DNA of 64,000 bases, from positions 46,760-110,759 of the forward strand of contig AQSI01000001.1 of NCBI GenBank assembly GCA_000402655.1, in the 5' to 3' direction. The notes beneath the pieces are model-generated. The model made no database searches. It saw nothing but the letters and a program-made list of their open reading frames with translations, and had not been told where the DNA came from. Numbering within the stretch: position 1 is the stretch's first letter; the number at the start of each line of letters is the position of its first letter. A program made the translations under genes and the position numbers. The DNA comes from Fidelibacterota bacterium SCGC AAA298-D23 (GTDB taxonomy: Bacteria > Fidelibacterota > Marinisomatia > Marinisomatales > Marinisomataceae). Positions 26,806 to 41,718 of the stretch are shown in pieces.

Positions 26806-27741
26806 ATGTCTAGACCTAAAATATCATTAATTGGCGGCGGTCAAGTTGGTGGAAATATCGCGCTGCTTTCTGCTCAGAAAGAACTCGGTGATATAGTCAT
26901 TGTTGATATTCCCGAAGCAGAAAATTTCATGAAAGGAAAAGCTTTAGATATTTCTCAGCTTCTTCCTCATGATGGCTATGACTCTAAATTATCAGGTACT
27001 TCAAATTTTGAAGATATTAAAGATTCTGATGTTGTAGTAATAACTGCAGGATTTCCAAGACAGCCTGGCATGAATAGAGAAGATCTTCTTCAAAAAAATC
27101 TGGATATTATGACAAATGTTGCAAATCAGGTTAAAAAATATTCACCGGAAGCATTTGTCATTGTTGTTTCAAATCCACTTGATGCTATGGTATATGCTTT
27201 CCATAAAATTTCTGGATTTCCAAAAAACAAAGTTGTTGGAATGGCTGGAGCTCTTGATAGCGCAAGATTTAGATCTTTTATTGCTGAAGCTACAAACCTA
27301 TCATCACAAGATATTAATTGTATGGTTCTAGGAGGTCATGGAGATACAATGGTGCCAGTTAGTAGGTTAGCAACTATAGGTGGTGTGCCATTATCATCTT
27401 TATTGAGTAAAGAAGAAATTATCGCTATAGAAAATAGAACTCGTGTTGGCGGAGGAGAAATTGTTAAACTTTTTGGTAAAGGTTCTGCATTTTATGCTCC
27501 TGCTCAATCTGCTGTAGAAATGATTGAAAGTTTTGTAAGAGATAAAAAAAGAGTCATACCATGCGCATCATTATGTGAGGGTGAATTTGATATAGATGGA
27601 TATTTCATTGGAGTTCCAACTGTTATAGGCTCAGGAGGTGTTGAAAAAATACTTACCTTTGATCTTGATGAAGATGAAAAAACAGCTTTAAGTAATACAC
27701 TTAATGAGGTAAAAAAAACTGTTAGTGAAACTGGTTTATAA
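26806..27741 (+). CDS. mdh: Malate dehydrogenase (LDH-like type)
   Basis: 311 aa with a Rossmann N-terminus, NPLDAMV, and the GGHGDTMVP catalytic His region. Confidence 0.9.
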   Translation: MSRPKISLIGGGQVGGNIALLSAQKELGDIVIVDIPEAENFMKGKALDISQLLPHDGYDSKLSGTSNFEDIKDSDVVVITAGFPRQPGMNREDLLQKNLDIMTNVANQVKKYSPEAFVIVVSNPLDAMVYAFHKISGFPKNKVVGMAGALDSARFRSFIAEATNLSSQDINCMVLGGHGDTMVPVSRLATIGGVPLSSLLSKEEIIAIENRTRVGGGEIVKLFGKGSAFYAPAQSAVEMIESFVRDKKRVIPCASLCEGEFDIDGYFIGVPTVIGSGGVEKILTFDLDEDEKTALSNTLNEVKKTVSETGL

Positions 27742-28510
27742 TAACCCGTTGAAATTATTCTTTGTTCTATTTCTTTGTATTATTGATAATGCATATTCAC
27801 AATCTAATCTTCTTGTAAATGAAAGTTTAAATGGATCTTTTTCCCAAGGAAAAATGGAAGGTTCAATTAATAAATTTTTTACTCAAGATACATATTATTT
27901 AAGAAGCAATTTTAATGTTAAAATTTTAAAATTATTCAATATCAAAAGAGATGAAGGATATATTATATCATTCAGTGATTCAACAGTTACAAAGATAAAT
28001 CATAAAAAAAAGAGGTTTGCAGTTTATTCCTTTAGCGAATTTCTTGAAGAAAATAAAAATAATCCACAAGGCGGTCCTCCCCAAGATGATAACAGCACTG
28101 AAAATGAATCAAATAGTGATGAAGAAGATTTGACAATTAATATTAGTGAAGAAATAGAAATCTTAAATGACTTTAAAACTAGAAAAGCTGAAATCGTTGT
28201 TAATGATGAAGATGAATCGGACTTATTTATTTGGTTTTCTGAATCAACTTTAAAGTCCAACACAGAATTAATAATTAATAAAAGATTAAAAGAAATGTTT
28301 GATGGATCAATACCTCCTAATTTGGGTATGAATGCAATGAATATACCTTATGATGAATATGATATTAATACAAATGCATTAACAATTAAGTTTGAAGCAG
28401 TAAGTGAAAATGGAACATTTACTTACAACTTACTGGGATATTCGGAGCAGGACTTATTACCAGAGATATTTAAAGTTTCTGAGAAATATAGAAAAGTTAA
28501 AAAACTATAG
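27725..28510 (+). CDS. Hypothetical exported protein with acidic low-complexity insert
   Basis: 261 aa. Non-ATG start: GTG at 27725, overlapping mdh, or TTG at 27749. Signal peptide ...LFFVLFLCIIDNAYS|QSN. Central insert NPQGGPPQDDNSTENESNSDEED. Confidence 0.5.
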   Translation: MKLVYNNPLKLFFVLFLCIIDNAYSQSNLLVNESLNGSFSQGKMEGSINKFFTQDTYYLRSNFNVKILKLFNIKRDEGYIISFSDSTVTKINHKKKRFAVYSFSEFLEENKNNPQGGPPQDDNSTENESNSDEEDLTINISEEIEILNDFKTRKAEIVVNDEDESDLFIWFSESTLKSNTELIINKRLKEMFDGSIPPNLGMNAMNIPYDEYDINTNALTIKFEAVSENGTFTYNLLGYSEQDLLPEIFKVSEKYRKVKKL

Positions 28511-29245
28511 ATTTTCTAAATAGCTTTTCATCCCCTGATATGCTCTTTCTTCTCGCTTATATGGTCTATCTAGAGTTACTCCCAATTTAAATAATTCAAT
28601 CGCCTTTTGTTCATTATTAAGCTTTAAATGAGTTTTTCCGAGCCAGTAATAAGTACCAATATAATCAGAATTTCTTTCTAAACTTTTTTCAAAAAAATAC
28701 TGTGCTTCTTCAAAAGATCCTTTTGGAGGTTCTGAAAATAAAATTGAAGCTATTCTTCTTGATGCTCTTCCTAAATCTGCTAATTTGTAGTGCCACTGTC
28801 CCATAATACTATAACAAAACTCATCATCAGGTAAAAGATTGATAACTTTTAAAGCAATATTTTTGATATTTTTTGAATGCTCAATTTGATTGCGAATAGT
28901 ATCTTCTTCAACTGTTTTTCCTAAGGTAATAACATACCATTTTAGTATATCAGGATTATCAGGTTCGATGTTAAATGCTTTTAGAGCATACTCAAATGCT
29001 CTTAAAGCATTGTCCTTATCTAAGTTTTTTTTCATTGCTGACTCAGACAAGTAGTGATGAGTAATTGACAATCTCAAAAGAACATCAGTATTTTGAGGGT
29101 ATTTATTATGGAGTTGCTCAAGAGGTGCTTGAGCTTTATCAAACTCGAGATTAGTAAGCTTAATATCAATATCTTTAAAATCTTGACCGGTAATTAGTGA
29201 AGATAAAATGATTCCTATAAATAGATTTTTCAAAGAAATAATCAA
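28505..29245 (-). CDS. Exported TPR-repeat protein
   Basis: 246 aa with a TTG start overlapping the upstream stop (TTGA). Signal peptide MIISLKNLFIGIILSSLITG|QDF. TPR-like helical repeats (YYWLGKTHLKLNNEQKAIELF). Confidence 0.6.
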   Translation of the reverse strand: MIISLKNLFIGIILSSLITGQDFKDIDIKLTNLEFDKAQAPLEQLHNKYPQNTDVLLRLSITHHYLSESAMKKNLDKDNALRAFEYALKAFNIEPDNPDILKWYVITLGKTVEEDTIRNQIEHSKNIKNIALKVINLLPDDEFCYSIMGQWHYKLADLGRASRRIASILFSEPPKGSFEEAQYFFEKSLERNSDYIGTYYWLGKTHLKLNNEQKAIELFKLGVTLDRPYKREERAYQGMKSYLENL

Positions 29246-30270
29246 GGATAAAATCTATAGATTACTGGCTGATGATCTGATATTCTATTTGATACATTGG
29301 AATTGGATGCGCCTGTTTGAGTTGGTAAAGCAATTACTTCTACGGACGATGTTGTTTGATATGAAAACAAAGGTTCATTAATAATAATATGATCTAAATG
29401 AGATGCATCATATGAACTTGTCCAGCCTTGCCAAGAATAGCCACTAGCAGGCCCTTGAAGAATATTTAAATCTGTTAATCTAAAAGAATCAGCAGAATCA
29501 AAAGATTCAGAATCAGTAAAGGGGCTTAAAGTTGGATTAGTTATACTTTGAGCACCAACATTATTAAAATCTCCAACCAATATCACATTATCATTTTCTC
29601 TATTATTAATTAAATAATCTGTTAAAAGAAGGCTTGCATGATGTCTTCTGGTTGCTTCGTTGGTTAAATCAGAAGCATCGTAATTATCATTTCCACAACA
29701 CTTATAATGAACATTTATTACATAAAGATTCATAGATTTAGTACCGTCGGTCCAAGTTATGTAGCTTTCCATTGGAGGTCTACTTGCGAACTGATATAAT
29801 TTGCAATTTAGGTAATCACCATTACATCCACTTGATGAATTTGAAGTATCAGCCCATAATTCATTTTTTGATACGTATGTAATGTTTTCATTCTTATAGA
29901 CAAGAGCAAAGCCAAGATTGCCTGACTCTTCATCCACAACATATGAATAATCTGTCATTGAATTAACCATGCTTATTAACTCAGATTCACTGGAAATTTC
30001 TTGCAGTAAATAAACATCAGCATTCCATTTTTCTAGTAAAGATTTAACCTGTTCTTTGGTAGAACTATGCTGAGGAAATTGTCTAATATTCCACGTAACA
30101 ATTTCAACTTGGTTAGATAAACCATAATCTACAGCATTTGGAAATTCGTAAGGATTTGTGTTATCTCCATTACCATTATCATCTCCAGAATCTGTAGTGG
30201 GTGAGCTGCCACCACTTGAGCATGCTAAAATAATCATAACAAGTAAATATTTATTTAATGATTTAATCAT
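29242..30270 (-). CDS. Endonuclease/exonuclease/phosphatase (EEP) family lipoprotein
   Basis: 342 aa with lipobox ILACS and a Gly/Ser/Asp/Asn linker. EEP motifs: VTWNIRQF, YLLQE, LVGDFN, SDHQPV. Confidence 0.8.
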   Translation of the reverse strand: MIKSLNKYLLVMIILACSSGGSSPTTDSGDDNGNGDNTNPYEFPNAVDYGLSNQVEIVTWNIRQFPQHSSTKEQVKSLLEKWNADVYLLQEISSESELISMVNSMTDYSYVVDEESGNLGFALVYKNENITYVSKNELWADTSNSSSGCNGDYLNCKLYQFASRPPMESYITWTDGTKSMNLYVINVHYKCCGNDNYDASDLTNEATRRHHASLLLTDYLINNRENDNVILVGDFNNVGAQSITNPTLSPFTDSESFDSADSFRLTDLNILQGPASGYSWQGWTSSYDASHLDHIIINEPLFSYQTTSSVEVIALPTQTGASNSNVSNRISDHQPVIYRFYP

Positions 30271-31174
30271 AGATGTAATTTAATAATAAAGTTCCAACTT
30301 GTTGCAAGCTTTGTGGAGAGCAATTTTCCGGAATATCGTTTTGAGTATGCCAATGATTATAAAATATATTAGGGTAATCAAAATCAATAATATCAATTGC
30401 TGGTATTTGAGCGTTTTCCCATAGAGGAACATGATCATCATAAATTTCATAGCCAATTCTATACTCAAAAGCGCTGAGACCTAGCTCATCTGCTAAGTTC
30501 CAAATTTCTTTAACCATTTCCGGGCTGGTTTGATAAGAAAATCGTTCAATGGGTAATTTTAAATATTTATCACCTACCATATCCACTATGATTGCGGATT
30601 TTGGTTTCTCAATTGGTAAATTTTTTGAAAAATATTCTGAACCCATTGCAAAAGTATATGGCTGTCCATTAATTCCAACATCCTCAGCGTCAAAAAAAAC
30701 TAAATCAACTCCAATTGGAGGTTTATTTTTTGAAAATATTGTTGCAAGCTCCATTAAAATTGCTGTACCGCTTGCACCATCATTAGCACCTAAGACAGGA
30801 ATAGAATGTTTTTCTTTATCTGGATCTTCATCTGAAAAGGATCTTGTATCCCAATGTGCACCAATTAGTAATCTTTCCTTTGATTCAACATTAAATCTAG
30901 CAACAAAGTTCTTACCATCTCTTTCAATGTTGGTTAAATGTTCTAAGTATGAAAACTCTTGAATTATTAATTCAGATGAAAACATATTCAAATATTCCTC
31001 TAAATAATTACTAAACTCTTTATGACCAATTGATCCAGGATTTCTCGGGCCAAAATCACATTGGTCAACTAGATGCTGGAAAGCTCTATTATGATCAAAT
31101 TGTGGTATACTTTTTTCAACACTATTAGTTGAACAACCAGCTAAAAATAATATGATTATAAATAAACTTTTCAT
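30263..31174 (-). CDS. M28-fold zinc lipoprotein, glutaminyl-peptide cyclotransferase (type II QC)-like
   Basis: 303 aa with lipobox FLAGCS. GAHWDTRSFSDEDPDKEKHSIPVLGANDGASGTAILMELA and LVFFDAEDVG match my recollection of Bacteroidetes QC (PgQC-like) rather than double-zinc aminopeptidases. Start shares 1 nt with the sprA stop (TAATG). Confidence 0.7.
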   Translation of the reverse strand: MKSLFIIILFLAGCSTNSVEKSIPQFDHNRAFQHLVDQCDFGPRNPGSIGHKEFSNYLEEYLNMFSSELIIQEFSYLEHLTNIERDGKNFVARFNVESKERLLIGAHWDTRSFSDEDPDKEKHSIPVLGANDGASGTAILMELATIFSKNKPPIGVDLVFFDAEDVGINGQPYTFAMGSEYFSKNLPIEKPKSAIIVDMVGDKYLKLPIERFSYQTSPEMVKEIWNLADELGLSAFEYRIGYEIYDDHVPLWENAQIPAIDIIDFDYPNIFYNHWHTQNDIPENCSPQSLQQVGTLLLNYIYD

Positions 31175-34100
31175 TATCCTCTTATTGCAACATTTAAGTT
31201 AATACCAAAATCTCTATCAATTCTTCTTCCAGTGAGGCGGGTATCGGTTTGTCTATATTCATAAAATAAACTTCCAGTTATATCATCTGTTAATGTATAA
31301 GTAATTCTTAAAACACTTTTTTGAGTATTTGTAAAATTTTGTTCCACAAAATTAATTTTATCCTTTGATCCCTCTTCTGTTTTATTTGAAAAGTCTAAGT
31401 TTAAGCTAATATTCATATTATTTCTTAGATAAATATTTCTTTCAGAAAATGGAAGGGGAAAACGAATTCCTTTTGAAAAATTATATGTCAATGTCGCAAG
31501 AATACTGTTATCAGAAATATATGTTAAACCGTTTGCAACTTCATCTAATGTATGGGTTATATTACTCCTTAAATTTGTTGAAATTCCATTATTAAATGTA
31601 GTGCTAATTCCAATCAAAGGTGAAAATGACCTTGATATCCTTGAGAATTGTAAATAATCATCATTACCATTTTCAAAAGATGAGATGTTGAAAAGATTTA
31701 TAGGCATGATGCCTTGTTCATTAAACTTCCATGATAAATTTTGCTTACCAGAAAAAGAATGTTCTAATGACATTGAACTAACATATGGCTTTATAAAACT
31801 AATCTTTTCAAGCCCGCCAACTCTAAAAGACCAATTTGAAAATGGAAATCCTTTTGATAAATAACTTCCAAATCCAATATAATCTCTTGTGGTCGAACGA
31901 ATATCTATATTATATCCATTGATATTAGATGATACACTTTCATTAAAGGAAATCATTAATGATGATTGAGGATTAAATCGTATACCTGTTCTGGCTGAAA
32001 ATGATTTTTTTATATCTTCATTACCTGTATTCAACCCAACTTCGGAGATTGAATCTAATCCAAGATCATCCTTAAACCCTAGACGATATGATAGTGGAAT
32101 TTTGCCATCTATTCCATTAGAAATCTTTGTGGTTATATTAGTAATATTGATTGTAAGAGGCTCAATCTTCTTGGATTCATTATATATTCTTTCAAGAGCA
32201 AAATTATTTTCAAGAGACTTTTTTTGATCCTTTTGAAGATTCTTTTTGTCTTCCTTCTTATTTTCATCTTCGGCGTCAAAACTTGCTAATCCTCTGGACC
32301 TCGTTCGTGATGGCGTCTTTGTTGATTCTCTCTTTGAAACCGGGGTATAAAATATTTCTATAACTTCTGTTGGAGATATAGAAAAATTAACACCTGAATT
32401 TCTTACTAAATTTAAATTTGCTGCGTCATATATACCATTTCTAGGCTGAATCCACGCATAATTTGTATTATATGTGAAATTAGGTTTAAACCAACTCAGC
32501 CATTGAGGGCTAAAAGTGTAGTTTAAAGTTTCATTAATATTTGTTAATGCACCAACTTTTAGTTGATTTAAAACTTCGTCTCGGTAATCTGACATGTCAC
32601 TTTTAATATTTTTTGTATAATTCAATTGAGTATTATCGAATACCTTATAATTAACAGTAAATCTTCTTTCTAGTCCCAAACTAAAATCTTCAATTAGTTC
32701 AGAATTCCTTCTTGATATTTTTTCAGATAGGTTTCTGTTTACGCGAATTCCGGTTGTAAATGTTGATGGTGTGTAAAAGAATCTTGTTTCACTCAATTTC
32801 TCTCCAATGATTGGGAAATTCTCAGTCCACTTAAAGGCCTCAATATAATTATCACTTGGAAATCTTAAATTATAATCAACATTAGTATTTATCTTGTTAA
32901 CATCTACTGACTCCATAATTGAGTCAGATTTTTTTTGAGTTGAAACATTAAATCCTGCGCTAAGGTTATCTACTGAATATTTAATAAATGGGTTTTCCGA
33001 CTTAACCCTCTTTGAAATTTTACCTGTAAGATTGATTGTTGAAGATTTTACCATTACAGAATCTGGAGGAGAATTATTTGTTCTTATATCTGTTCCTGGA
33101 AAATATTTTGGTGAGTTATTAATTAAATTATAGCTAGTGGTTACAGGAAAAGAAATTCCAAGGGAGCTAGGGAAGAAGTTACCAAGCTGAAAATTGTTAT
33201 TAAAAGTAAAATTTTCTACAGTCTGATTTGTTCCAATTCTTTCTTGAAGAACGTGAAAGTCTGCATCCTTTCTACTATAAGTAAATGTGCTTTGACTTAA
33301 GTCAGATAGATTAAATTTTGACTTAAGTCTTACTGCAGTTCCTGTTTCTTTTTTTACACCACTCAGCCTAAGTTCATCTAACCAAATTTCACCAGTTATG
33401 GGGTGATCAGAATCATTTTCTACCCCAACAATAAAATATTGTAATCTTGAAAGAGAAGGGTTTCCAATAATTTCAACATTTTTATAAATAGCACTGTTGT
33501 CATCAATGAAACTATACTCCTTATAGCTTAATGAATCAGTAAATGAATCATTTGAATTGAGTAAATTAATGGTATCATCAGTTTCATTTTTTAGCGAAGT
33601 GAGCCAATTAAGATCTAAATCAATTTCATTTCTTTTTAATTCTTCATCCCAATTATCATATACAGGTTTAGTAATTTTATAATACTCATCGCCGTTACCG
33701 AATTGAATGAAAAATTTTAAATCAGTTTCCTCATTTGAAGCAAAATCACTATTTCCGTATACAAACATTTTCATGCGATCATACATTAGATAACTTTGAC
33801 CCTTTTTTTCATCCATTGCTAGAATTTTTTTTGCCGCACCCTTGTAATTAGGATCTAGATTTTCAAATTGCAATACCAACGATTGTTCTTTTGATCTAAT
33901 TTGATTTATCTCGTCATATTCACCAAAAACCCCTTTTGGTGGTACATAATTTGGATTATCTTCATCATTGATTACTGAAACTATGAATGTGCTATCCTGT
34001 ACTGTGTAAGATTCAGTATCTGCAAGTGATGTTCCAAGTTCTTGCCAAGCATTACCAACTAATTCAATTTTAGCAATTTCTAATTTAGTTTCTTCCGTGA

Positions 34101-37100
34101 TACCAGATACAACTAATCTCACAGATTTTATTTCACTTAAAGATATGTCCTGGATTTTATCAAAATGGCTTAATGGAACTCTAATTAATTTCCAACCTGT
34201 TTTTATACCATCTACTTCAGTTGAACCTGCAACATAAGTGCTATCATTTAAAGATATTGTTTTAGTAAAGTAGTCATTGGTTCTATCTAAAAATCCTGAC
34301 TTATCTAAATCTTCAGTATCAGGATATTTACCACCTGTTTGAATTCTGTCACCTGTACCATTTCCTTCCGTACCATTGACTTTTTCATAATTTGAACTAC
34401 CTTCTGAATAATCCCAATCATCTCCATTAGGATCATTTGAATCGACATCTAAAGAGGCATTTATTAATTCGGTTTCTCCATTTGCAAAATATTCAAGGTA
34501 AGAAAGTCCTGATGGATCCAAACATCCTCCAAAACCATCTTCATATTCATTAAAACAACCATCTAACCCAGTATCTTCATTTTCTTCCAAAAATCCATTT
34601 CCTAGTGCCAACCCAGCTTCAGGTACATCTTCAGTATTCAAAATACCATTTCCATTATAATCTTCACTAATTTTTCCTAAATCAATTGTTAAATTTCCTT
34701 CATCACCCCTTAGCCAAATTTCAAAAAATCTTGTTCTTGTTTGATCATAATCTCCTATGAACATCGGAGTTATAATGCCTGCCCACAACGAGTCTGGATC
34801 AACTGACGATTGAAATTCTTTTGGCTTGTATTTTAAAACCAAAACATCCGTTGTAAGATTTTGTGCTCTTTGTGATGTAGAAACATTAGGCCAAATATTA
34901 TTAGTAAGTACCTGAGAATAGGGATTATACCAAAACATATTTAATCTATTTCTTTGGTCATACTCCTGGTTGTTAGATATATTGATAGGTGCAGAGGAAA
35001 TATTCCAAAAACGTCTCAAAATTGAAGGATTTGTTACTCTTTTTGATCCTTCAAAATCGTCAATGAAAGCTACCCCGTTACCATCTCCTGTCCTAGGATT
35101 TGATATTGAATTTGGATTAGGTAAAACTTGTGCTATCTCACCTTCAATTGAAAAGTTTGATAACTTATTAGCATTTAAAAAACTAAATTGATTTAATCGA
35201 GCAGATAAATTATCTAAATCCTTTTCATATCTACCATTAATATCCCAGATGAAATTTTGAATTGGTTCATAGCCTACTTCAACTTTTTTGTTTACAATAT
35301 CTTGATCATAATAAAGAGCTGTAAGTCCTAAAAATGACTTTTCATCAAAATCAATTTGTGCTCTAGAACCAACCATAATTTTTCTATCAAACGTAACAAG
35401 ATCATGTTTATCATAAGAAATCTCTAAATCACTATTTGGATCAATATCTCCTGTTAGCATTATTATTCCGGAAAAATAATCAATTTGATAATCGGTACCT
35501 TTTTCAAGCTTTTCGCCATTTGAAAGTATTTCTTCACTTCCTTCAACCAAGGTGAAACCTAAACTAATAGTTGATTTAGGATTAGTATAATTAGCGTTAA
35601 TTGTGAATCTTGAATCTCCAGTGTATTCTGTTCTATTAGAAGTAGTATACATTTTTCCTTGCTGTAAAAACTCTGATAATTCGCTATTATCATTACCCCC
35701 ATTAATAACATCATTTGAAACAAATGGTAATAAAGCAGGTAGATGAATTTCTCCGGTTACCAAATTAACTATATTTGGGTTATTGTAATCAATAACTTCA
35801 TCAGGTGATGAGGCTCCTGATTGATTAAAACTATCTAATCCAAAAAGATTTAAGAATGTGCTACCATTTTCAGTTCTATCGCTTACTGGCGTTGAAAAAT
35901 TATCAGTAATATTTACTTCAAGACTCTGGGAATCAACATTGGTTGAACCCATTGAATAAACATTTTTAAACATTAAATCCCATGCTGGATGATTTGGATG
36001 TGATGATTGAGCTTTAATCATTTTAAGAGTTAACGTTGGATTTTCAATAGAAACTCCTTCACCTATTTGAACGATTATTTGTCCTGTATTTCTATCTGCA
36101 AGTTGATAATGGGCAGCAATGATTTCATTCTGTAAAGAACTTTGCATTCTTATAAATCCTAAATCTTCATTGATACTATAATCTGTACCTCTATCTAATT
36201 TAATGAAAGCTCCCTCCTTACTTTCATCCGCAAATTCTGATGTATTATTAGGATTTATATAGGCAATTCCAGGATCTGCTTGTGGATTATTTGATGCATC
36301 AATCTTATATAATTCAAAGTTTTTAACAACAACATTTCCAATTGGGTGTAAACCATTGACAAGAGGATAATAAGATGGTATTGCTAGAGTAAAACCACTT
36401 TCATCAATTGTATCAGTTGAACCATTTCTAAACCATTCATGAATGAAGAAGTAAAGATTTTTTTTATAGTCATAATCTTGAATTTGATTTTCTTTTAATT
36501 CTGAAGTTCCTCTGTATCTTTGAGACTGTTTTTTGGTCTTTTCTAAAGAAGCAATACTAGTAATGTTTACTGGTCCAAGCTTTGATAATGCCTTAACCCC
36601 AAATAAGCCATTATTTTTCCCAGAAAAAGTTACAAATTCTGTTGAAGGTAATGACAAAGAAATATTTCCCATCTCCAGTCTTTGTAAAATATCATCCTCT
36701 TCTCCCTGATAATCAACTCTAATAGTATTTTCCCAATCAAAATCACGTTCTGAATTTTGATCTAAAGATACAGTGATACGTTCTCCAACTTTTCCCTGTA
36801 CATTAAGTTGCTGCTTTTGATCAAATTTAAAATTTGTTTTTTCTTGTTCCCTGTAAGAGGAGCGTACTAGCTCTTGATCTTGATTGACTAACTTACCTGA
36901 TAAATTAATGTTACCTTGAACCCTTAAAGATGCTCTTCCCAAAGCACCTAAATCTATATCTGCAATCTGCATAAATCTGTCTGTTTTTTTATCGATGGTA
37001 GTATCTGATGCAGCTATAGAAAAAGGTTTAGAAAGGTTAAATTTCTGATTTGAAGAAATTAAAAAATTAATATAATTATCAAAAGTTGAGACATAAGGAA

Positions 37101-37344
37101 GTGAGGTATTTGTATTTAATATTCTTTCATTTATTATGATTTTATCAAAAGATGAATTAAAAGAAACATTATATTCTAAAAATTTTTTATCAACTTTGAA
37201 GATTCCTATAGGATAATTTGATATATCACTGAGTGAATAATTTGTTTTTTTAGAATTGATGAAAGGATCAAACGTAATTTCTTTTACAATGCTATTGCTA
37301 AAAAGAACTCCAATCAAACAAACAAAGATGATCAGCTTCTTCAT
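31174..37344 (-). CDS. sprA: Type IX secretion system translocon SprA (Sov)
   Basis: 2056 aa with a signal peptide and beta-rich outer-membrane composition. The N-terminal block YQGEEDDILQRLEMGNISLSLPS...GLFGVKALSKLGPVNITSIASLEKTKKQS matches the conserved SprA segment (EDxIIxxIEAGNVSMPL...LFGVK). Confidence 0.85.
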   Translation of the reverse strand: MKKLIIFVCLIGVLFSNSIVKEITFDPFINSKKTNYSLSDISNYPIGIFKVDKKFLEYNVSFNSSFDKIIINERILNTNTSLPYVSTFDNYINFLISSNQKFNLSKPFSIAASDTTIDKKTDRFMQIADIDLGALGRASLRVQGNINLSGKLVNQDQELVRSSYREQEKTNFKFDQKQQLNVQGKVGERITVSLDQNSERDFDWENTIRVDYQGEEDDILQRLEMGNISLSLPSTEFVTFSGKNNGLFGVKALSKLGPVNITSIASLEKTKKQSQRYRGTSELKENQIQDYDYKKNLYFFIHEWFRNGSTDTIDESGFTLAIPSYYPLVNGLHPIGNVVVKNFELYKIDASNNPQADPGIAYINPNNTSEFADESKEGAFIKLDRGTDYSINEDLGFIRMQSSLQNEIIAAHYQLADRNTGQIIVQIGEGVSIENPTLTLKMIKAQSSHPNHPAWDLMFKNVYSMGSTNVDSQSLEVNITDNFSTPVSDRTENGSTFLNLFGLDSFNQSGASSPDEVIDYNNPNIVNLVTGEIHLPALLPFVSNDVINGGNDNSELSEFLQQGKMYTTSNRTEYTGDSRFTINANYTNPKSTISLGFTLVEGSEEILSNGEKLEKGTDYQIDYFSGIIMLTGDIDPNSDLEISYDKHDLVTFDRKIMVGSRAQIDFDEKSFLGLTALYYDQDIVNKKVEVGYEPIQNFIWDINGRYEKDLDNLSARLNQFSFLNANKLSNFSIEGEIAQVLPNPNSISNPRTGDGNGVAFIDDFEGSKRVTNPSILRRFWNISSAPINISNNQEYDQRNRLNMFWYNPYSQVLTNNIWPNVSTSQRAQNLTTDVLVLKYKPKEFQSSVDPDSLWAGIITPMFIGDYDQTRTRFFEIWLRGDEGNLTIDLGKISEDYNGNGILNTEDVPEAGLALGNGFLEENEDTGLDGCFNEYEDGFGGCLDPSGLSYLEYFANGETELINASLDVDSNDPNGDDWDYSEGSSNYEKVNGTEGNGTGDRIQTGGKYPDTEDLDKSGFLDRTNDYFTKTISLNDSTYVAGSTEVDGIKTGWKLIRVPLSHFDKIQDISLSEIKSVRLVVSGITEETKLEIAKIELVGNAWQELGTSLADTESYTVQDSTFIVSVINDEDNPNYVPPKGVFGEYDEINQIRSKEQSLVLQFENLDPNYKGAAKKILAMDEKKGQSYLMYDRMKMFVYGNSDFASNEETDLKFFIQFGNGDEYYKITKPVYDNWDEELKRNEIDLDLNWLTSLKNETDDTINLLNSNDSFTDSLSYKEYSFIDDNSAIYKNVEIIGNPSLSRLQYFIVGVENDSDHPITGEIWLDELRLSGVKKETGTAVRLKSKFNLSDLSQSTFTYSRKDADFHVLQERIGTNQTVENFTFNNNFQLGNFFPSSLGISFPVTTSYNLINNSPKYFPGTDIRTNNSPPDSVMVKSSTINLTGKISKRVKSENPFIKYSVDNLSAGFNVSTQKKSDSIMESVDVNKINTNVDYNLRFPSDNYIEAFKWTENFPIIGEKLSETRFFYTPSTFTTGIRVNRNLSEKISRRNSELIEDFSLGLERRFTVNYKVFDNTQLNYTKNIKSDMSDYRDEVLNQLKVGALTNINETLNYTFSPQWLSWFKPNFTYNTNYAWIQPRNGIYDAANLNLVRNSGVNFSISPTEVIEIFYTPVSKRESTKTPSRTRSRGLASFDAEDENKKEDKKNLQKDQKKSLENNFALERIYNESKKIEPLTINITNITTKISNGIDGKIPLSYRLGFKDDLGLDSISEVGLNTGNEDIKKSFSARTGIRFNPQSSLMISFNESVSSNINGYNIDIRSTTRDYIGFGSYLSKGFPFSNWSFRVGGLEKISFIKPYVSSMSLEHSFSGKQNLSWKFNEQGIMPINLFNISSFENGNDDYLQFSRISRSFSPLIGISTTFNNGISTNLRSNITHTLDEVANGLTYISDNSILATLTYNFSKGIRFPLPFSERNIYLRNNMNISLNLDFSNKTEEGSKDKINFVEQNFTNTQKSVLRITYTLTDDITGSLFYEYRQTDTRLTGRRIDRDFGINLNVAIRG

Positions 37345-37347
37345 TTA

Positions 37348-37935
37348 TTATAAGTCTCTAATTTTTGTCACAAACTTCTTAATAGCTAGTCCTCTGTGAC
37401 TAATGTTATTTTTTTGTTTATTATTCATTTGAGCAAGTGTCATATTAAACTTTTCAGAAAAGAAAATTGGATCATATCCGAAACCATTACTTCCAACTTT
37501 ACTCTTTGTAATTTTGCCCTCTAAAACGCCTTCCACATGAAAATCATTAATTCCATCAACATATGATATTATTGTACGAAACCTTGCTGTTCGTAGGTGA
37601 CTTTCAACACCTTCTAAGTTTTGTAATAGTTTTTGCATATTGTCTTCATAAGTAGCTTTATTTCCTGCATATCTTGCAGTATATAGTCCAGGATCTCCGT
37701 TTAAAGCATCAACTTCTAAAATTGTATCATCTGCAACTGAAGCAATTTTACTGAAATTGAAGCAAGCCCTTGACTTTATAAACGAATTTTCTTCGATAGT
37801 GTTTCCATCTTCAATTATTTCTCCAATTTCAGGAAAATCTTTTAAAGATAGAATATTATCAAAAAACGGTTGAATCTTTATAGAAATTTCAGATATTTTG
37901 TGTTTATTTGAAGAAGCTATAACAATTTTTTTCAC
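37348..37935 (-). CDS. rdgB: dITP/XTP pyrophosphatase (RdgB/HAM1)
   Basis: 195 aa with IASSNKHKISE and GFGYDPIF motifs. Sits 3 nt upstream of sprA. Confidence 0.9.
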   Translation of the reverse strand: MKKIVIASSNKHKISEISIKIQPFFDNILSLKDFPEIGEIIEDGNTIEENSFIKSRACFNFSKIASVADDTILEVDALNGDPGLYTARYAGNKATYEDNMQKLLQNLEGVESHLRTARFRTIISYVDGINDFHVEGVLEGKITKSKVGSNGFGYDPIFFSEKFNMTLAQMNNKQKNNISHRGLAIKKFVTKIRDL

Positions 37936-38005
37936 TTCTTAAACTAAGAAATATTTATGTGTTTTTTAAATAACTAATATTGCTTAGCTTTTCGAACATT
38001 TTATA

Positions 38006-38078
<73 letters not shown>

Positions 38079-38087
38079 CTTTCAGTT

Positions 38088-38621
38088 ATGAATTTGGATA
38101 AAAAAAATATATTACTTTTAGTATTAGTTGTACTTTTCATTGTATTTATTGGTTCGTTCTTAAGACAACCTAAAATTTATACTTTCTATAAAGAACAATT
38201 TGTACCAAGTGATATGGATACTGTTTTTGAATTTTTTTCTAGACCTGAAAACCTTGAAAAAATTACTCCAACATCAATGGGTTTTAATATTATAACACCA
38301 TCTCCAATTGAAATGAAAGAAGGTGCTATAATCGATTATACTGTCAAAATTATGGGAGTTCCAATGCGGTGGAGAACAATGATTACAAGCTATAAGAAAA
38401 ACGAATATTTTGTTGATGAACAATTAAAGGGTCCTTATAGCTATTGGCACCATAGGCATTCATTCAAAGAAGTTGAAGGTGGTGTACTAATCATTGATGA
38501 AATTACTTATGCTCTACCCATCCAAGCGTTTAGAAAAATTGTACATCCAGTCCTCATTAAGCCTCAAATAGAGCAAATCTTTAATTTCAGATTTAAAACT
38601 ATTCAAGATAAATTCAAATAA
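38088..38621 (+). CDS. SRPBCC-superfamily (START/polyketide-cyclase-like) protein with N-terminal TM anchor
   Basis: The track ORF start at 38049 lies inside the tRNA. The ATG at 38088 gives 177 aa (MNLDKKNILLLVLVVLF...). FEFFSRPENLEKITP...GPYSYWHHRHSF is typical of the COG4276-type SRPBCC family. Confidence 0.7.
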   Translation: MNLDKKNILLLVLVVLFIVFIGSFLRQPKIYTFYKEQFVPSDMDTVFEFFSRPENLEKITPTSMGFNIITPSPIEMKEGAIIDYTVKIMGVPMRWRTMITSYKKNEYFVDEQLKGPYSYWHHRHSFKEVEGGVLIIDEITYALPIQAFRKIVHPVLIKPQIEQIFNFRFKTIQDKFK

Positions 38622-39157
38622 TGATTAATTACATTCTTTCAAAATCAAACATATTAATTAATTATGTTGGATTCACTATTGTTTGGTTTTCATGTGTATA
38701 CAGCGGTGCGCAAGGAAATCCAATTATTGCCATTATACCTACCTTTATTTTTTTATTATTACATTTCTCAATTGTTACAGATCATTTAAAACAAGAAATC
38801 CAATTGATAATCATATCTATCATTCTTGGACTGGTTGTGGACTCCACTTTTTCTTTACTTGGGTTTGTGCAGTACAACGGTACGTTAGATTTCGCGCCAA
38901 ATCTAGCACCGCTATGGATAATTTGTATGTGGGCAGGTTTTACAGCTCAGATAAATCATGTGATGAAATTTTTGATTGGTAAATATACACTGATTTGTTT
39001 CTATGGATTACTAGCACCTTTAGCATATATTGCTGGGGAAGGCATTGGTGCAGCAATAGTTGAAGATACTTATCTATCTTATGGTTTTATAAGCATAGCT
39101 TGGTCGATAAGTTTATTATCTTTATTCAAAATTTCAGAAAACCTCATGAGTAAATAA
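38621..39157 (+). CDS. Polytopic membrane protein, DUF2878-like
   Basis: 178 aa with about 5 TM helices. APLWIICMWAGFT...LLAPLAYIAGEGIGA resembles DUF2878 (from memory). 1-nt overlap with the SRPBCC gene. Confidence 0.5.
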   Translation: MINYILSKSNILINYVGFTIVWFSCVYSGAQGNPIIAIIPTFIFLLLHFSIVTDHLKQEIQLIIISIILGLVVDSTFSLLGFVQYNGTLDFAPNLAPLWIICMWAGFTAQINHVMKFLIGKYTLICFYGLLAPLAYIAGEGIGAAIVEDTYLSYGFISIAWSISLLSLFKISENLMSK

Positions 39158-39158
39158 A

Positions 39159-40583
39159 ATGAGTAGAATTATTCTTTTAATTACATTATTTATTTTTGGT
39201 TGTGCATCACAAAAACCAATTGAACCCAATCAAGTCGTAGATTTTGATGTTCCTGAGAAATGGGAGGTTAATATTTCACAGAATTTAGATTTTGATCAAA
39301 AATGGTGGAATATTTTTGATGATGATAATCTTAATTCATTTGTGGTTGAATTCATGGATGAAAATATTAATCTCGAAAAAGCAATGCTTAATACTAGAAA
39401 AGCCAAGCAAGCTTCAGTTATAGCAACAGGTAGCTTATTGCCTTCAATTTCTATAAGTAGTGGTGTCGTAGAATCAGAACAGAATACTGCTGGTATCCCC
39501 ACAGTATTTTCAGCCTTATTAGGTCAATCATCAGATGAAGTAACTGTATTCACTCAAGAAAATTATAACTTATCTCTTGGTACTCAATGGGAAATTGATT
39601 TATGGGGTAAACTTCGTCAAGGAAGAATTGCAACTAAACAACAATATTTATCTGCTAAGTATTTTGAAGATTTCCTTAAGCTTTCACTTACTGCTGAAGC
39701 ATCTAAACTTTACTTTGCAATAATAGAAGCAGAGCAAGTTTTAAACAACGCATCAAAAAAACTTAAGAATGCAGAAACTATTTTTGAGTTATACTCTTTA
39801 CGCTACAACAAAGGGAGTATTTCCATACAAGCGTATCAACAATCAAAAATAATATTTAATGCTACAAAATCTGATTATAATAACAAACTTTTAATGGTCA
39901 ATTCTCTTAAAAGAGAAGCTAGACTACTTGTAAAAGACTATCCTTCAACAGAATTTTTAGTTAATAATAATTTTCCTAAAAAATTACCAAGTATTCCAAA
40001 TACTCTTCCTGCAGATATTGTAAAAAGAAGACCAGATCTAATTTCTCAACAATATAATCTACTTGCTAATAAAGCATTAGACAGACAAGCGCTTCTTACT
40101 TTATTCCCAACATTCAGTCTTAGTGGAAGCTATGGAAGCTCGTCAAATGATTTAGAAGACTTAACGAATGAAGATTTTTCAGTATGGAATAGAGGATTAA
40201 ACGTTTTTATGCCAGTATTTAATGCAGGAAAACTTATTGCAAATAAAAGATTGGCTAAATCTAACAGGGAAATTGCAATGCTTGATTTTGTTAATGCTCT
40301 GTTAACTGCATATAAAGAAATAGAAAGTGGATTTGAATCTGACTTGACTTCAAATCAAGCTTTAGAAATAATTAATGAAAATATTATTTTATCTGAAAAT
40401 ATTTACAATACAACTTTTGATGGATTCACGAAAGGATCTTCATCATTTGAAGATGCTATTAATGCCAATAATGCACTTTATGATAATCTTGATTTAAAAG
40501 CTCGATTAGAAAAAGTTCGCATAGAACAAAGAATAAATTTAATTTTAGCTCTTGGCGGAGGGTTTAACATAACAAATGATTAA
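39159..40583 (+). CDS. RND efflux outer-membrane factor lipoprotein (NodT/TolC family)
   Basis: 474 aa with lipobox LFIFGCAS. Two TolC-like repeat halves (DLWGKLRQG...). Confidence 0.85.
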   Translation: MSRIILLITLFIFGCASQKPIEPNQVVDFDVPEKWEVNISQNLDFDQKWWNIFDDDNLNSFVVEFMDENINLEKAMLNTRKAKQASVIATGSLLPSISISSGVVESEQNTAGIPTVFSALLGQSSDEVTVFTQENYNLSLGTQWEIDLWGKLRQGRIATKQQYLSAKYFEDFLKLSLTAEASKLYFAIIEAEQVLNNASKKLKNAETIFELYSLRYNKGSISIQAYQQSKIIFNATKSDYNNKLLMVNSLKREARLLVKDYPSTEFLVNNNFPKKLPSIPNTLPADIVKRRPDLISQQYNLLANKALDRQALLTLFPTFSLSGSYGSSSNDLEDLTNEDFSVWNRGLNVFMPVFNAGKLIANKRLAKSNREIAMLDFVNALLTAYKEIESGFESDLTSNQALEIINENIILSENIYNTTFDGFTKGSSSFEDAINANNALYDNLDLKARLEKVRIEQRINLILALGGGFNITND

Positions 40584-41718
40584 AAAATTAAAACCTTTAT
40601 TTATTTTATTGGGAGCATTTGCTTTATCGTATTTGCTCTGGTTTCTAGGACAAGTTCAGCCTGATCCAGTTGAAGAATTACCTCCACCAGATGTTATTAT
40701 TGAAATTTTAACACCAAAAGATTTTCAAGTTCAAATAAGTTCAAATGGTACAACAACCCCCCTTACTCAAACAGTGTTAACTGCAGAAGTAGGTGGTGAA
40801 GTTATTTATCGTTCAAAAAAGTTTGCAGAAGGTGCATCAGTTATTGAAGGTGAAATTTTAGCAAAAATTGATGACACAGATTTACAACTTCAATACAAAA
40901 ATGCCTTATTACAATTGGCGAATGCTGAAGTTCAATATTCTCTACAATTAGCCGAAGCTGAAGTTGCAAAAGAAGCTTGGGATAAAATTGGTGATGGAGT
41001 TGCAAGTGATTTGACTCTCAAAAAACCACAATTGAAACAAGCAGAAGCTTTCTTAGAGGTTGCAAAAGCACAAGTAAGTTCTGCAGCAAAAAAATTAAAT
41101 AAAACCGAGATTATTGCTCCATATGCTGGAAGAATTCAAAATGTTAATATTGACCTGGGGACTACTATTATTCCTGGTCAACCAGTTGGAGCAATGTATA
41201 CATCAAGTGAAATTGAAATTACATTAGCTGTGAAAGATAATGATTTACAATTTTTAAGTATTCCAATGGATGGAAGAAAACTTAATCCAAGTGAACAAGC
41301 ATCGGTAGTAATCGAAAGTTTTTACAAAGGAAAAACTCAATCTTGGAAAGGTAAACTTGAGAGAGTTGACGGGGTTATAGATCCTGTAACAAGAATGATT
41401 AATCTTATAGCGGTCTTTAAAAACGACTTTATTGAATCAGATAAACCTAATCTTCCTATTGGCCTTTTTGTTGAAGCAAAAATTGATGGCATTACATTAA
41501 AAAATATTTTTGAAATTCCAATTAATTCTATTTCAGAAGACAATGAAGTATATATTGTTGACAAAGATAATCAACTCGAGTTAAGAGAATTAACCATTTT
41601 AAAAAAATATAGTGAATTTGTGATTATTAAGGATGGATTAAAAGCTGGGGAGAGGATTGTTACTTCAAAACTTTCTACAGCTTCGAACGGAATTAAAGTT
41701 AACCCAGTTTATAAATAA
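40576..41718 (+). CDS. RND efflux periplasmic adaptor (membrane fusion protein)
   Basis: 380 aa with an N-terminal anchor, a coiled-coil hairpin (QLQYKNALLQLANAEVQY) and the lipoyl-like APYAGRIQNV. Confidence 0.85.
   Translation: MIKKLKPLFILLGAFALSYLLWFLGQVQPDPVEELPPPDVIIEILTPKDFQVQISSNGTTTPLTQTVLTAEVGGEVIYRSKKFAEGASVIEGEILAKIDDTDLQLQYKNALLQLANAEVQYSLQLAEAEVAKEAWDKIGDGVASDLTLKKPQLKQAEAFLEVAKAQVSSAAKKLNKTEIIAPYAGRIQNVNIDLGTTIIPGQPVGAMYTSSEIEITLAVKDNDLQFLSIPMDGRKLNPSEQASVVIESFYKGKTQSWKGKLERVDGVIDPVTRMINLIAVFKNDFIESDKPNLPIGLFVEAKIDGITLKNIFEIPINSISEDNEVYIVDKDNQLELRELTILKKYSEFVIIKDGLKAGERIVTSKLSTASNGIKVNPVYK

Follow-up and report, generated by a model that had tools for sequence, protein, structure and literature searches.

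In a marine Marinimicrobia (SAR406) bacterium with a streamlined genome, sprA, the gene for the outer-membrane translocon of the type IX secretion system (T9SS), is followed directly by a gene for a putative type II glutaminyl cyclase (QC). We consider it somewhat probable (about 0.55) that this pair is the meaningful core of a probably co-transcribed gene string, that it ties QC expression to the secretion machinery and that the arrangement is ancestral in FCB-group phyla. Where signal peptidase I leaves an exported protein with Gln at its N-terminus, QC turns this residue into pyroglutamate (the 'Q-rule'); Q-rule and T9SS are both hallmarks of Bacteroidota. To our knowledge, the pair is the first genomic-context evidence joining the two, and a literature search found no paper on sprA-QC linkage. 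The 'striking phylogenetic coincidence' of T9SS and Q-rule has been noted and left unexplained (PMC5837995).

Organization of the gene string

The string (Table 1) lies within a 64-kb stretch of DNA that was analysed as a whole and is called the window here. The ORF map and a reading of the junctions confirmed the five minus-strand genes of the preliminary description, with their coordinates and spacing: a 3-nt gap between rdgB and sprA, a 1-nt overlap in which the QC start lies on the sprA stop (TAATG), an 8-nt overlap between the QC and EEP genes (ATGATTAA) and a 4-nt overlap between the EEP and TPR genes (TTGA). The families anticipated for SprA, the M28 protein and the EEP protein (TIGR04189, PF04389 and PF03372) were all matched by the respective genes. 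There is no intergenic space within the string, the 113-nt gap ahead of rdgB would be the sole non-coding space for a promoter of all five genes, and rdgB-sprA-QC-EEP-TPR are probably co-transcribed. The convergent gene shares 6 nt at its 3' end with the TPR gene, and its protein found no family match in our search.

Table 1. Features of the sprA-QC string and its borders (positions in the window)
Feature	Position	Strand	Basis or remark
rdgB/HAM1, non-canonical purine NTP pyrophosphatase	37348..37935	-	first of string; PF01725, TIGR00042
sprA/sov, T9SS outer-membrane translocon, 2056 aa	31174..37344	-	TIGR04189, PF14349
Putative type II (bacteroidal-type) glutaminyl cyclase (QC) lipoprotein, M28, 303 aa	30263..31174	-	PF04389, PDB matches
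Predicted EEP-fold phosphodiesterase lipoprotein, 342 aa	29242..30270	-	PF03372
Exported RMD1-3-type TPR protein, 246 aa, TTG start	28505..29245	-	PF21033 and TPR models
Divergent intergenic region upstream of rdgB, 113 nt	37936..38048	.	ORF map
Convergent neighbour, exported 261-aa protein (cluster c9)	27725..28510	+	marks the string's 3' boundary

The tight overlaps had been taken as the sign of a co-expressed envelope module. This argument is weakened, because overlap is seen in 16 of the window's 42 same-strand gene pairs and a distance of at most 10 nt in 26, which makes the overlaps in the string unremarkable, and because a cytoplasmic enzyme, RdgB, is encoded inside the string as well. 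Tight overlaps in streamlined genomes are poor ground for calling functional modules. The part of the proposed module that stood is the sprA-QC order, which is widely kept; rdgB is a cytoplasmic housekeeping gene, and EEP and TPR belong to the nearest subclade only.

A SprA of ordinary length for its lineage

Members of the SprA/Sov family form a giant 36-strand outer-membrane beta-barrel. The window's SprA scores 709.6 bits against the equivalog HMM TIGR04189 (cutoff 200), matches PF14349 (E=6.4e-34) and aligns with SprA of F. johnsoniae (PDB 6h3i/6h3j, E=1e-54) in four ordered, colinear stretches (query 154-2030 versus Fj 153-2375). Compared with the latter protein (6h3i) it is about 350 residues shorter, a deficit scattered over many segments and, judged by alignment offsets, largest opposite Fj 1785-2168 (about 145 residues). 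The preliminary description had suspected in this a reduced translocon variant from a non-Bacteroidia lineage. The lineage was right, the host being a member of Marinimicrobia; SprA is not specially reduced, since sampled homologs outside Bacteroidota usually measure 1950-2200 aa and colinearity with FjSprA is maintained. Its N-terminal signal peptide, MKKLIIFVCLIGVLFS followed by NS, has its predicted cleavage site between LFS and NS, and thus an N-terminal Gln would not be exposed. Unlike sprA/sov of F. johnsoniae and P. gingivalis, the window's gene has rdgB and QC as neighbours. Other T9SS core genes (PorV, PorK/L/M/N, PorU) and CTD cargo were absent from the 64-kb window, nor were the SprA partner proteins PorV, plug and PPI identified.

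Assignment of the M28 protein

The earlier reading of the M28 protein as QC-type was upheld: sequence comparison identifies it as a predicted type II glutaminyl cyclase and not a two-zinc aminopeptidase. Searches against solved structures returned 3gux (1.3e-58), 6qro (1.1e-50), 4fuu/7d1d (1.6e-49) and PgQC 6qql (4.6e-45), compared with merely 1.4e-4 for the two-zinc aminopeptidase 1amp, and identity to the aligned solved Bacteroidota QCs is 36-38%. The residues D132-G133, E164-D165, D198, W275-H276 and R111 are invariant both in the solved-QC alignment and in all 75 informative loci of the sample described below; they map to PgQC Asp149, Glu182/Asp183, Trp298/His299 and Arg128 (PMC7948796). 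All three zinc ligands are kept, D132, D165 and H276 matching PgQC Asp149, Asp183 and His299 (roles from PMC7948796), and D165 is the bacteroidal-specific ligand that replaces human Glu202. Invariance across loci extends to catalytic E164 (HsGlu201) and D198 (HsAsp248) and to pocket residue W275 (PgTrp298); F271 (PgPhe294) is found in the window's protein and in the solved-QC alignment and falls in a loop that varies across phyla. The Asp132-Gly133 pair corresponds to PgQC Asp149-Gly150, which has been tied to loss of the second zinc site (PMC7948796). Fold and family, Asp/Asp/His zinc ligands, catalytic Glu and Trp-His motif are thus shared with the Bacteroidota enzymes PgQC (PG2157), TfQC, PiQC and BtQC (6qql, 6qro, 4fuu/7d1d), and cyclase activity would be expected of the window's protein.

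The Marinimicrobia protein nevertheless differs from these enzymes. Of the active-site-entrance set Arg128/Pro129/Asp132/Trp193, R111 and D115 are kept, while Pro129 is replaced by Ser112 and Trp193 by Phe, at a position where the loci have an aromatic residue (F/Y/W). The insertion loop has 6 residues fewer than in the aligned Bacteroidota QCs. One could cite these features in favour of an ordinary two-zinc aminopeptidase, together with the fact that Pfam gives Peptidase_M28 and nothing else, that NCBIfam gives weak aminopeptidase/DapE matches, far under cutoff, and that some PDB homologs were deposited as 'leucine aminopeptidase'. We consider such an assignment very improbable and largely refuted: E-values to proven QCs are lower by 40-50 orders of magnitude than those to true aminopeptidases, the bacteroidal-QC-specific Asp165 and the Asp132-Gly133 pair are present, Gln-start exported proteins are common in these lineages, and the 'aminopeptidase' entries 3tc8 and 4fuu have been re-annotated as one-zinc QCs (PMC7948796). 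The two substitutions and the short loop instead suggest a divergent QC subgroup and do not run counter to QC chemistry.

The protein carries a lipobox (LAGC, residues 11-14), a trait shared with the Bacteroidota enzymes, and exported proteins that frequently start with Gln recall the Q-rule of Bacteroidota. At one KSB1 locus (L047) the lipobox of QC gives way to a signal peptide of the signal peptidase I type, with Gln as the +1 residue.

Distribution of the sprA-QC pair

Adjacency was scored where sprA and QC share a strand and the end of sprA precedes QC by at most about 310 nt. Among the query's 80 most similar QC loci, which are not an unbiased survey and of which 75 were informative, the pair occurs in 42: in 25 of 25 loci of the Marinimicrobia QC clade and in 17 of the 50 outside it. 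By taxon label, taken from MAG record titles and in some cases doubtful, it is found in KSB1 (3/3), Calditrichota (3/3), Zixibacteria (3/4), Ignavibacteria (3/14) and Eisenbacteria (1/1), and in none of the eight Bacteroidota-labelled loci. In the QC tree the loci with the pair are spread over many deep branches, and their GC content ranges from 30 to 67%. The neighbours provide an internal control: rdgB, EEP, TPR, mdh, L27, L21 and RNase G all leave QC outside Marinimicrobia, and sprA stays. The recurrence of the pair exceeds chance, and the expectation that gene order is kept in relatives was borne out for sprA-QC. The preliminary description had also regarded this order as not known from characterised systems, which agrees with the null result in Bacteroidota-labelled loci and with P. 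gingivalis, whose QC gene lies not behind sprA but within the PG2157-PG2158-hemG operon (PMC10653852).

In 17 loci, some of them from KSB1 and Calditrichaceae, QC is followed within 10 kb by two PorV/PorQ-family genes, and by a gene for a propeller protein (c5) whose C-terminal domain is of T9SS type. Three PorV/PorQ copies pass the NF033709 cutoff of 90 bits (171 at L057, 161.8 at L047, 96 at L028); the five others that were tested stay under it, at 69-88 bits. The block is absent from this locus in the window and its closest clade. In Bacteroidota, by comparison, the PorV, PorQ, PorZ and PorU genes are scattered. An assignment of the c5 neighbour as PorZ was rejected, as it reaches 24-41 bits against NF052228 (cutoff 260) in the C-terminal region alone; its likeness to PorZ/PorU is sub-threshold and confined to the C-terminal domain, and the label 'PorZ-like' is at most a lead.

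Passengers around the pair

RdgB is firmly identified by PF01725 (E=4.8e-56) and TIGR00042 (159.8 bits, cutoff 145.35). Its cluster comprises 22 loci, all of the Marinimicrobia QC clade, and the gene is a housekeeping passenger found with sprA within Marinimicrobia alone. PrmA is a cytoplasmic ribosomal-protein methyltransferase. In 28 loci, some of them without sprA, its gene comes immediately after QC. Together with rdgB-sprA across Marinimicrobia, this indicates that long-lived adjacency of functionally unrelated genes occurs here. Within the window's clade, 14 loci have an ortholog of the convergent c9 protein.

The EEP protein matches PF03372 (E=1.4e-11; 45 bits, cutoff 24.5) and has a lipobox (ILAC) followed by a disordered G/S/D-rich linker. 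Its catalytic residues N61, E91, H188, D234/N236, D293/H294 and D332/H333 are invariant in the family. Sequence searches detected no relatives of solved structure; the AF2 model (pTM 0.79) has as its best Foldseek matches 3g6s, TDP2, DNase I and Nocturnin (E about 1e-11, 11-18% identity), so that sequence and model together predict a member of the EEP fold family with the full catalytic set. Fold and catalytic residues are thus shared with DNase I, TDP2, Nocturnin and the Bacteroides EEPs 3g6s and 3mpr. Set apart from these by its low identity, its lipid anchor and the acidic/Gly-rich character of the linker, the window's protein also belongs to a restricted family: its 158 clusters at E<=1e-5 are every one Marinimicrobia-type.

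The TPR protein matches PF21033 (42.4 bits, cutoff 26.7) as well as TPR models, and its full-length family profile finds the RMDN3 TPR domain 7cc7 (E=7.8e-26, residues 46-241). In contrast to RMD1-3/PTPIP51, it is bacterial, exported, and found in one subclade only. Predicted signal peptidase I cleavage between ITG and QD would expose an N-terminal Gln (Q21, kept in at least 90% of orthologs), and the protein is therefore a likely QC substrate. EEP and TPR genes stand beside QC solely in the nearest Marinimicrobia subclade, which places them outside any conserved module; they are lineage-specific passengers, an envelope pair in which a TPR protein stands beside a phosphodiesterase of nuclease type. 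An apparent EEP-TPR fusion was rejected as a broken gene.

Possible reach of the Q-rule

By a crude heuristic, Gln occupies +1 in 0.30-0.31 of signal-peptide-like proteins, compared with 0.04-0.12 for N, E, D or K, and is the top or joint-top residue at this position. Gln follows the signal peptide in 17 of 19 c5 and 11 of 12 TPR orthologs and in all 11 c9 orthologs with complete ORFs; the window's c9 protein has its predicted cleavage site between AYS and QS. QC acts on signal peptidase I substrates whatever their destination. In P. gingivalis, 86% of T9SS proteins are Q-positive, and QC is essential for reasons still unclear (PMC10653852). T9SS itself is reportedly not controlled by pyroglutamate formation (PMC5837995).

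Coupling, hitch-hiking or a dedicated accessory

We propose that a lipid-anchored, zinc-dependent type II QC would convert the +1 Gln of exported proteins to pyroglutamate. Many of these proteins start with Gln, T9SS-type neighbours and the operon's TPR protein among them, and would therefore depend on QC while crossing the periplasm. Placed directly behind sprA, and often ahead of PorV/PorQ-family genes, QC would have its expression coupled to the secretion machinery. On the simplest reading a broad range of FCB-group phyla would have inherited the arrangement from a common ancestor, and Bacteroidota and most Ignavibacteria would have lost it, with rdgB upstream and the EEP and RMD-type TPR genes downstream as lineage-specific passengers. 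We infer selection for the linkage, as well as the direction of its evolution. The same order might instead be a relic of ancestral gene order, kept by chance or by the generic operon economy of compact genomes with no functional coupling, QC being a general envelope housekeeping enzyme that lies there just as rdgB and prmA do; such hitch-hiking appears possible but doubtful. Since prmA is also kept beside QC, even at loci unlinked to sprA, hitch-hiking has to be reckoned with, and the rdgB-sprA order across Marinimicrobia and overlaps that are the genome norm fit it too. The pair, however, has outlasted all its other neighbours: it is retained in at least six phylum-level groups, where the remaining genes around it have all changed, and in the 17 loci with the PorV/PorQ block QC has sprA on one side and PorV/PorQ-family genes on the other. 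Survival of gene order across such divergence is rare without selection. On the other side, the window's SprA is no Gln substrate, proteins of all destinations are modified by QC and T9SS is reportedly not under its control (PMC5837995), and sprA and QC are unlinked in most Ignavibacteria and in Bacteroidota, where both systems work (PMC10653852; 0/8 loci).

A stronger form of coupling would make QC a dedicated T9SS part, which would either dock on or close to the translocon or serve specifically to mature the components and cargo of T9SS, with EEP and TPR as further accessories of a single envelope machine, much as the preliminary description had proposed. The adjacency in 42 of 75 loci, the order sprA-QC-c5-PorV/Q-PorV/Q-EEP-TPR at two loci (L016/L017) and the Gln start of the c5 CTD protein in most orthologs would suit this idea, which we nevertheless judge unlikely, as EEP and TPR occur in a single Marinimicrobia subclade, their supposed fusion is a broken gene, and P. 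gingivalis QC is essential solely via its general enzymatic activity (PMC10653852). Slightly less improbable, though still a long shot, is that Q-rule and cyclase arose within the T9SS pathway, QC being an ancestral dedicated accessory that later became an unlinked housekeeping enzyme in Bacteroidota. With its gene set between those of the translocon and of the PorV/PorQ shuttle, it would then protect or mark periplasmic proteins awaiting SprA. If true, the co-occurrence of T9SS and Q-rule would become a mechanistic and evolutionary link.

Implications

With expression coupling as the preferred reading, the window's operon amounts to one meaningful pair, sprA-QC, and several passengers. The linkage predicts co-expression, QC-dependent stability of T9SS components and cargo, and possibly SprA-QC contact. 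Occurring across Marinimicrobia, KSB1, Calditrichota, Zixibacteria and others, the pair would extend T9SS and Q-rule features well beyond Bacteroidota, and it directs attention to uncultured FCB lineages, in which the ancestral sprA-QC arrangement may survive.

A tightly packed gene string in the window

Five genes run head to tail on the minus strand of the window: rdgB, the type IX secretion system (T9SS) translocon gene sprA, the gene of an M28 lipoprotein identified below as a glutaminyl cyclase (QC), and genes for an EEP lipoprotein and an exported TPR protein. Their coordinates are exactly those of the preliminary description, and curated HMMs bear out all five of its family assignments (table). 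Reading the sequence directly, we also recovered the junctions it had reported. Three nucleotides separate rdgB from sprA, the sprA stop overlaps the M28 start as TAATG, the M28 and EEP genes share 8 nt (ATGATTAA) and the EEP and TPR genes share TTGA. Lipoboxes are visible in the M28 (LAGC) and EEP (ILAC) proteins, and the TPR protein carries a signal peptide.

These overlaps had been taken to mark the string as one envelope module, a reading we abandoned. Of the 42 neighbouring gene pairs that share a strand in the window, 16 overlap and 26 lie no more than 10 nt apart, so tight packing is no signal in itself; furthermore, the string opens with a cytoplasmic house-cleaning enzyme, RdgB. A sigma-70 promoter/terminator scan of positions 28000-38500 returned 56 promoter-like sites against 58.2 expected and was uninformative (window GC 31%). 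The divergent neighbour of rdgB is a tripartite efflux operon whose genes overlap by 1 and 8 nt. Two small membrane proteins, the second a DUF2878 protein in relatives, come first, and an OEP of lipoprotein type, a membrane-fusion protein and an RND-type pump of 1065 aa follow.

Features in the window and in the compared loci (L numbers)
Feature	Sequence	Position	Strand	Remarks
rdgB	window	37348-37935	minus	ORF map; PF01725/TIGR00042
sprA	window	31174-37344	minus	2056 aa; TIGR04189 709.6 bits (cutoff 200)
M28 protein (QC)	window	30263-31174	minus	PF04389
EEP protein	window	29242-30270	minus	PF03372
TPR protein	window	28505-29245	minus	TTG start; TPR models and PF21033 (RMD1-3)
Exported protein, cluster c9	window	27725-28510	plus	orthologs in L001-L014
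Efflux operon	window	38049-44915	plus	
LptF-like gene	window	192-1343		
LptA/C-like protein	window	51372-54695	plus	1107 aa
Repeat lipoprotein	L001	1-2898	plus	cadherin-like/Big_9 repeats
Repeat lipoprotein	L007	2268-3158	plus	cadherin-like/Big_9 repeats
QC of a KSB1 locus	L047	9962-10897	plus	
EEP-TPR reading frame P0237	L087	2177-3742	plus	
c7 lipoprotein	L019	10878-11735	plus	
c7 lipoprotein	L028	11429-12562	plus	
prmA directly after QC	L025, L028, L030, L040, L041, L045, L046, L049	~10.6-11.7 kb		positions for loci where QC begins at 10001
prmA directly after QC	L051, L053, L058, L061, L064, L065, L068, L072	~10.6-11.7 kb		

A divergent glutaminyl cyclase of the bacteroidal type

Compared with all PDB sequences, the M28 protein matches, with E=1e-45 to 1e-58, type II QCs of Bacteroidota and closely similar structural-genomics entries, namely 3gux, 3tc8, 6qro, 4fuu/7d1d and 6qql (the Porphyromonas gingivalis enzyme, PgQC). 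Animal QCs follow at ~1e-11, and the classical two-zinc aminopeptidases 1amp and 1rtq match only at ~1e-4. In PgQC the zinc ligands are Asp149, Asp183 and His299; Asp183 is a bacteroidal-specific replacement of human Glu202, the catalytic Glu immediately precedes it, and the Asp149-Gly150 peptide has been linked to loss of the second metal site (Taudte et al., PMC7948796). Pocket residues include Phe294/Trp298, Arg128/Pro129/Asp132 and Trp193 (PMC7948796). Aligned with three solved Bacteroidota QCs and five marine relatives, the window protein shares invariant D132-G133, E164-D165, W275-H276, F271, R111, D115 and D198, and over 75 loci from many lineages D132, E164, D165, D198, W275, H276 and R111 stay invariant.

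The zinc ligands are thus kept, and the earlier view of a QC-like protein and not a double-zinc enzyme stands; that it is an ordinary aminopeptidase is essentially excluded. In contrast to the bacteroidal consensus, Ser replaces Pro129, Phe replaces Trp193 (an aromatic F/Y/W position across loci) and the insertion loop is six residues shorter, so we place the protein in the bacteroidal-type QC family as a divergent representative, with cyclase activity and zinc stoichiometry predicted from sequence.

Conservation of the sprA-QC pair

The nearest homologs are marine metagenome proteins, the named ones belonging to Candidatus Marinimicrobia/Neomarinimicrobiota (SAR406); the closest reference locus is that of SAG AG-453-L05 (CACKGC01; QC 87%, SprA best-segment 93% identity), and MAG GCA_045560235.1 also ranks among the closest genomes. 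Close relatives (QC 65-72% identical) keep the whole order rdgB-sprA-QC-EEP-TPR, which says little about linkage because the housekeeping flanks are also syntenic. We therefore set it aside. One genome per GTDB species was scanned with a QC alignment spanning Marinimicrobia and Bacteroidota, and homologs of the five window proteins were located by tblastn and all-against-all ORF clustering. Across the best 80 loci similarity declines gradually, starting with Marinimicrobia (87% down to 45%) and passing to Kryptonia, Ignavibacteria, Zixibacteria, Calditrichota, KSB1, Latescibacteria, Eisenbacteria and Bacteroidota.

In this sample, biased toward QCs similar to the query, sprA lies on the same strand and ends within ~310 nt upstream of QC in 42 of the 75 loci with enough upstream sequence to be informative. 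The arrangement is found throughout the Marinimicrobia QC clade (25/25) and in 17/50 of all other loci. By record label, taken from MAG titles, these include KSB1 (3/3), Calditrichota (3/3), Zixibacteria (3/4), Ignavibacteria (3/14), Eisenbacteria (1/1) and Zhuqueibacter (1/1). In a neighbour-joining QC tree, linked loci, those with sprA directly upstream of QC, occupy many deep branches and range from 30 to 67% GC; unlinked loci cluster in one large Ignavibacteria/Bacteroidota-labelled clade and in true Bacteroidota. As an internal control, none of rdgB, EEP, TPR, mdh, L27, L21 and RNase G accompanies QC outside Marinimicrobia in the surveyed loci. Conservation of gene order, as first proposed, therefore holds for sprA-QC and fails for the rest of the string: rdgB stays with sprA throughout Marinimicrobia and only there, and EEP and TPR come straight after QC in the nearest subclade alone, where QC identity is at least 62%.

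The suggestion that the sprA-QC overlap is foreign to characterised systems was also borne out. No Bacteroidota-labelled locus is linked (0/8), and the P. gingivalis QC gene heads the PG2157-PG2158-hemG operon (PMC10653852), whereas the window QC sits directly behind sprA. QC orthologs have been put to complementation tests in a P. gingivalis strain depleted of the enzyme (PMC10653852). A search of open-access papers and preprints found no report of sprA-QC linkage or of a T9SS in Marinimicrobia.

A compact SprA and its upstream neighbours

The window SprA had been suspected to be a reduced translocon. Its alignment with the solved Flavobacterium johnsoniae protein (Fj) consists of four stretches in matching order that span Fj 153 to 2375, and the deficit of ~350 residues is gradual, the largest shortfall being ~145 residues opposite Fj 1785-2168. 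Since QC-adjoining SprA ORFs in other non-Bacteroidota lineages also measure 1950-2200 aa, the protein is a lineage-typical compact form with no special reduction.

Upstream of sprA, lptF/lptG (PF03739, TIGR04408) form a second recurrent neighbour, which links sprA to LPS export genes. They lie divergent and directly adjacent in L033, L047, L051, L056, L064, L080 and L083, among them KSB1, Zhuqueibacter, Eisenbacteria and unlabelled loci. Ignavibacteria and one Zixibacteria locus have a putative MurB, read from the ORF, in their place. Just upstream of rdgB-sprA, the close relatives L001 and L007 (AG-453-L05) encode lipobox-bearing lipoproteins with cadherin-like/Big_9 repeats.

Genes downstream of the cyclase

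Behind QC, in some cases with prmA in between, 17 loci carry the ORF clusters c7 and c5 and two tandem PorV/PorQ-family genes; these loci are the deeper Marinimicrobia plus a single one each from KSB1 and Calditrichaceae. The c5 product is a propeller-like protein of ~530 aa with a T9SS-type C-terminal domain (CTD) and a FlgD_ig match; it also weakly matches PorZ and PorU at the C-terminus only, and as the PorZ match is sub-threshold we do not claim c5 as PorZ. The PorV/PorQ genes reach 171 bits on NF033709 (cutoff 90), five of eight tested copies scoring 69-88 bits. The c7 lipoproteins (280-440 aa), whose sole family match is a sub-threshold one to 'choice-of-anchor X', always lie between QC (or prmA) and the block of CTD protein and PorV/PorQ.

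One locus, L016, reads sprA-QC-c5-PorV/Q-PorV/Q-EEP until its contig ends inside the EEP gene, and L017, which lacks the upstream part, runs on past EEP as far as TPR. Judging by these gene orders, the clade of the window appears to be derived, with its c5/PorV/Q block lost or moved elsewhere. Within the 64-kb window we found no homologs of PorV/PorQ, c5, c7 or prmA, and no T9SS parts among its other exported proteins (LptA/C-like, TonB receptor, NrfF-like, LysM lipoprotein, cupredoxin).

The methyltransferase gene prmA (ribosomal protein L11; PF06325, E=1.8e-53) directly follows QC in 28 loci from several phyla whether or not sprA precedes QC, and ppx often comes next. This QC-prmA adjacency is very persistent.

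Glutamine after signal peptides

The Q-rule, Gln at +1 after signal peptidase I cleavage of most exported proteins, is characteristic of Bacteroidetes and 'not the entire FCB group', Ignavibacterium album being one of the outliers (Bochtler et al., PMC5837995). In the window, Gln is exposed in the TPR protein (ITG/QD), the c9 protein (AYS/QS) and the LptA/C-like protein (VFA/QD), and is absent from +1 in SprA (LFS/NS) and the TonB receptor (IFA/VD). By a neutral heuristic, which is diluted by uncleaved membrane anchors and is neither a SignalP substitute nor a formal Q-value, Gln is top or joint-top at +1 in Marinimicrobia (0.31) and other linked loci (0.30), where Asn, Glu, Asp and Lys range from 0.04 to 0.12; in unlinked loci it comes second (0.20). 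Gln follows the signal peptide in 17/19 c5, 11/12 TPR and all 11 complete c9 proteins; among SprA N-termini the share is roughly one third. These data are consistent with an active QC that would serve many envelope proteins, T9SS-type ones included.

The c9 protein, a conserved exported protein of 240-260 aa without a family match, is encoded convergently with the TPR gene (6-nt overlap). The LptA/C-like protein, with weak LptC-like (residues 61-167) and LptA-like (258-356) matches, is unusually large for LPS-transport bridge domains; the window also holds an LptF-like gene. In the KSB1 locus L047, QC lacks the lipobox cysteine and appears to carry a signal peptide of the signal peptidase I type with Gln behind it (LRS/QTVPQFDD), so this enzyme might cyclise its own N-terminus.

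The EEP and TPR proteins

With 158 clusters at E<=1e-5, the EEP family is small; it is restricted to Marinimicrobia and retains the full canonical catalytic set. Neither sequence nor profile searches of the PDB found a match; an AlphaFold2 model (pTM 0.79, residues 1-38 disordered) has uncharacterised Bacteroides EEPs, TDP2, DNase I and Nocturnin as nearest fold neighbours at 11-18% identity. This fold search alone places the protein, and just generically, as a predicted nuclease-type phosphodiesterase; surface exposure or a role in phosphorus scavenging is something we only infer. The TPR family matches the TPR domain of RMDN3/PTPIP51 over its whole length (7cc7, E=7.8e-26). We rejected an apparent EEP-TPR fusion on a metagenome contig, P0237, as Rosetta-stone evidence: its EEP gene is split and runs straight into the TPR gene without its last ~110 codons and without the C-terminal catalytic SDH, which marks it as a pseudogene or an assembly artefact.

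Possible meaning of the sprA-QC adjacency

We favour, at a probability of roughly 55%, co-transcription of the string around a meaningful core, an ancient pair of sprA and QC that ties QC production to the secretion machinery. Output of the N-terminal capping enzyme would thereby be coupled to a system whose components and cargo must survive in the periplasm, and rdgB, EEP and TPR would be lineage-specific passengers. The main alternative, possible but less likely, is that the two genes have simply inherited their order and that, as with prmA and rdgB, it carries no functional meaning. Three observations favour this alternative: QC acts on proteins whatever their destination, pyroglutamate formation is reported not to control T9SS (PMC5837995), and sprA and QC are unlinked in Bacteroidota. 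A purely functional reading is also weakened by prmA, which stays directly behind QC even where sprA is absent, and by LptF/G (divergent) or the putative MurB, found on the upstream side of sprA in several phyla; around these genes, adjacency to unrelated housekeeping genes can clearly be conserved. The linked loci on many deep QC branches and the internal control speak for the favoured reading. A dedicated physical role of QC, and of TPR or EEP, at the translocon is unsupported, and we consider it improbable.

The component families are all known; the arrangement and its phylogenetic breadth appear to be new. In FCB phyla other than Bacteroidota, a glutaminyl cyclase gene is embedded in a T9SS gene cluster, and the conserved sprA-QC pair, known from genomic context, is noteworthy and testable for specialists on T9SS or the Q-rule.
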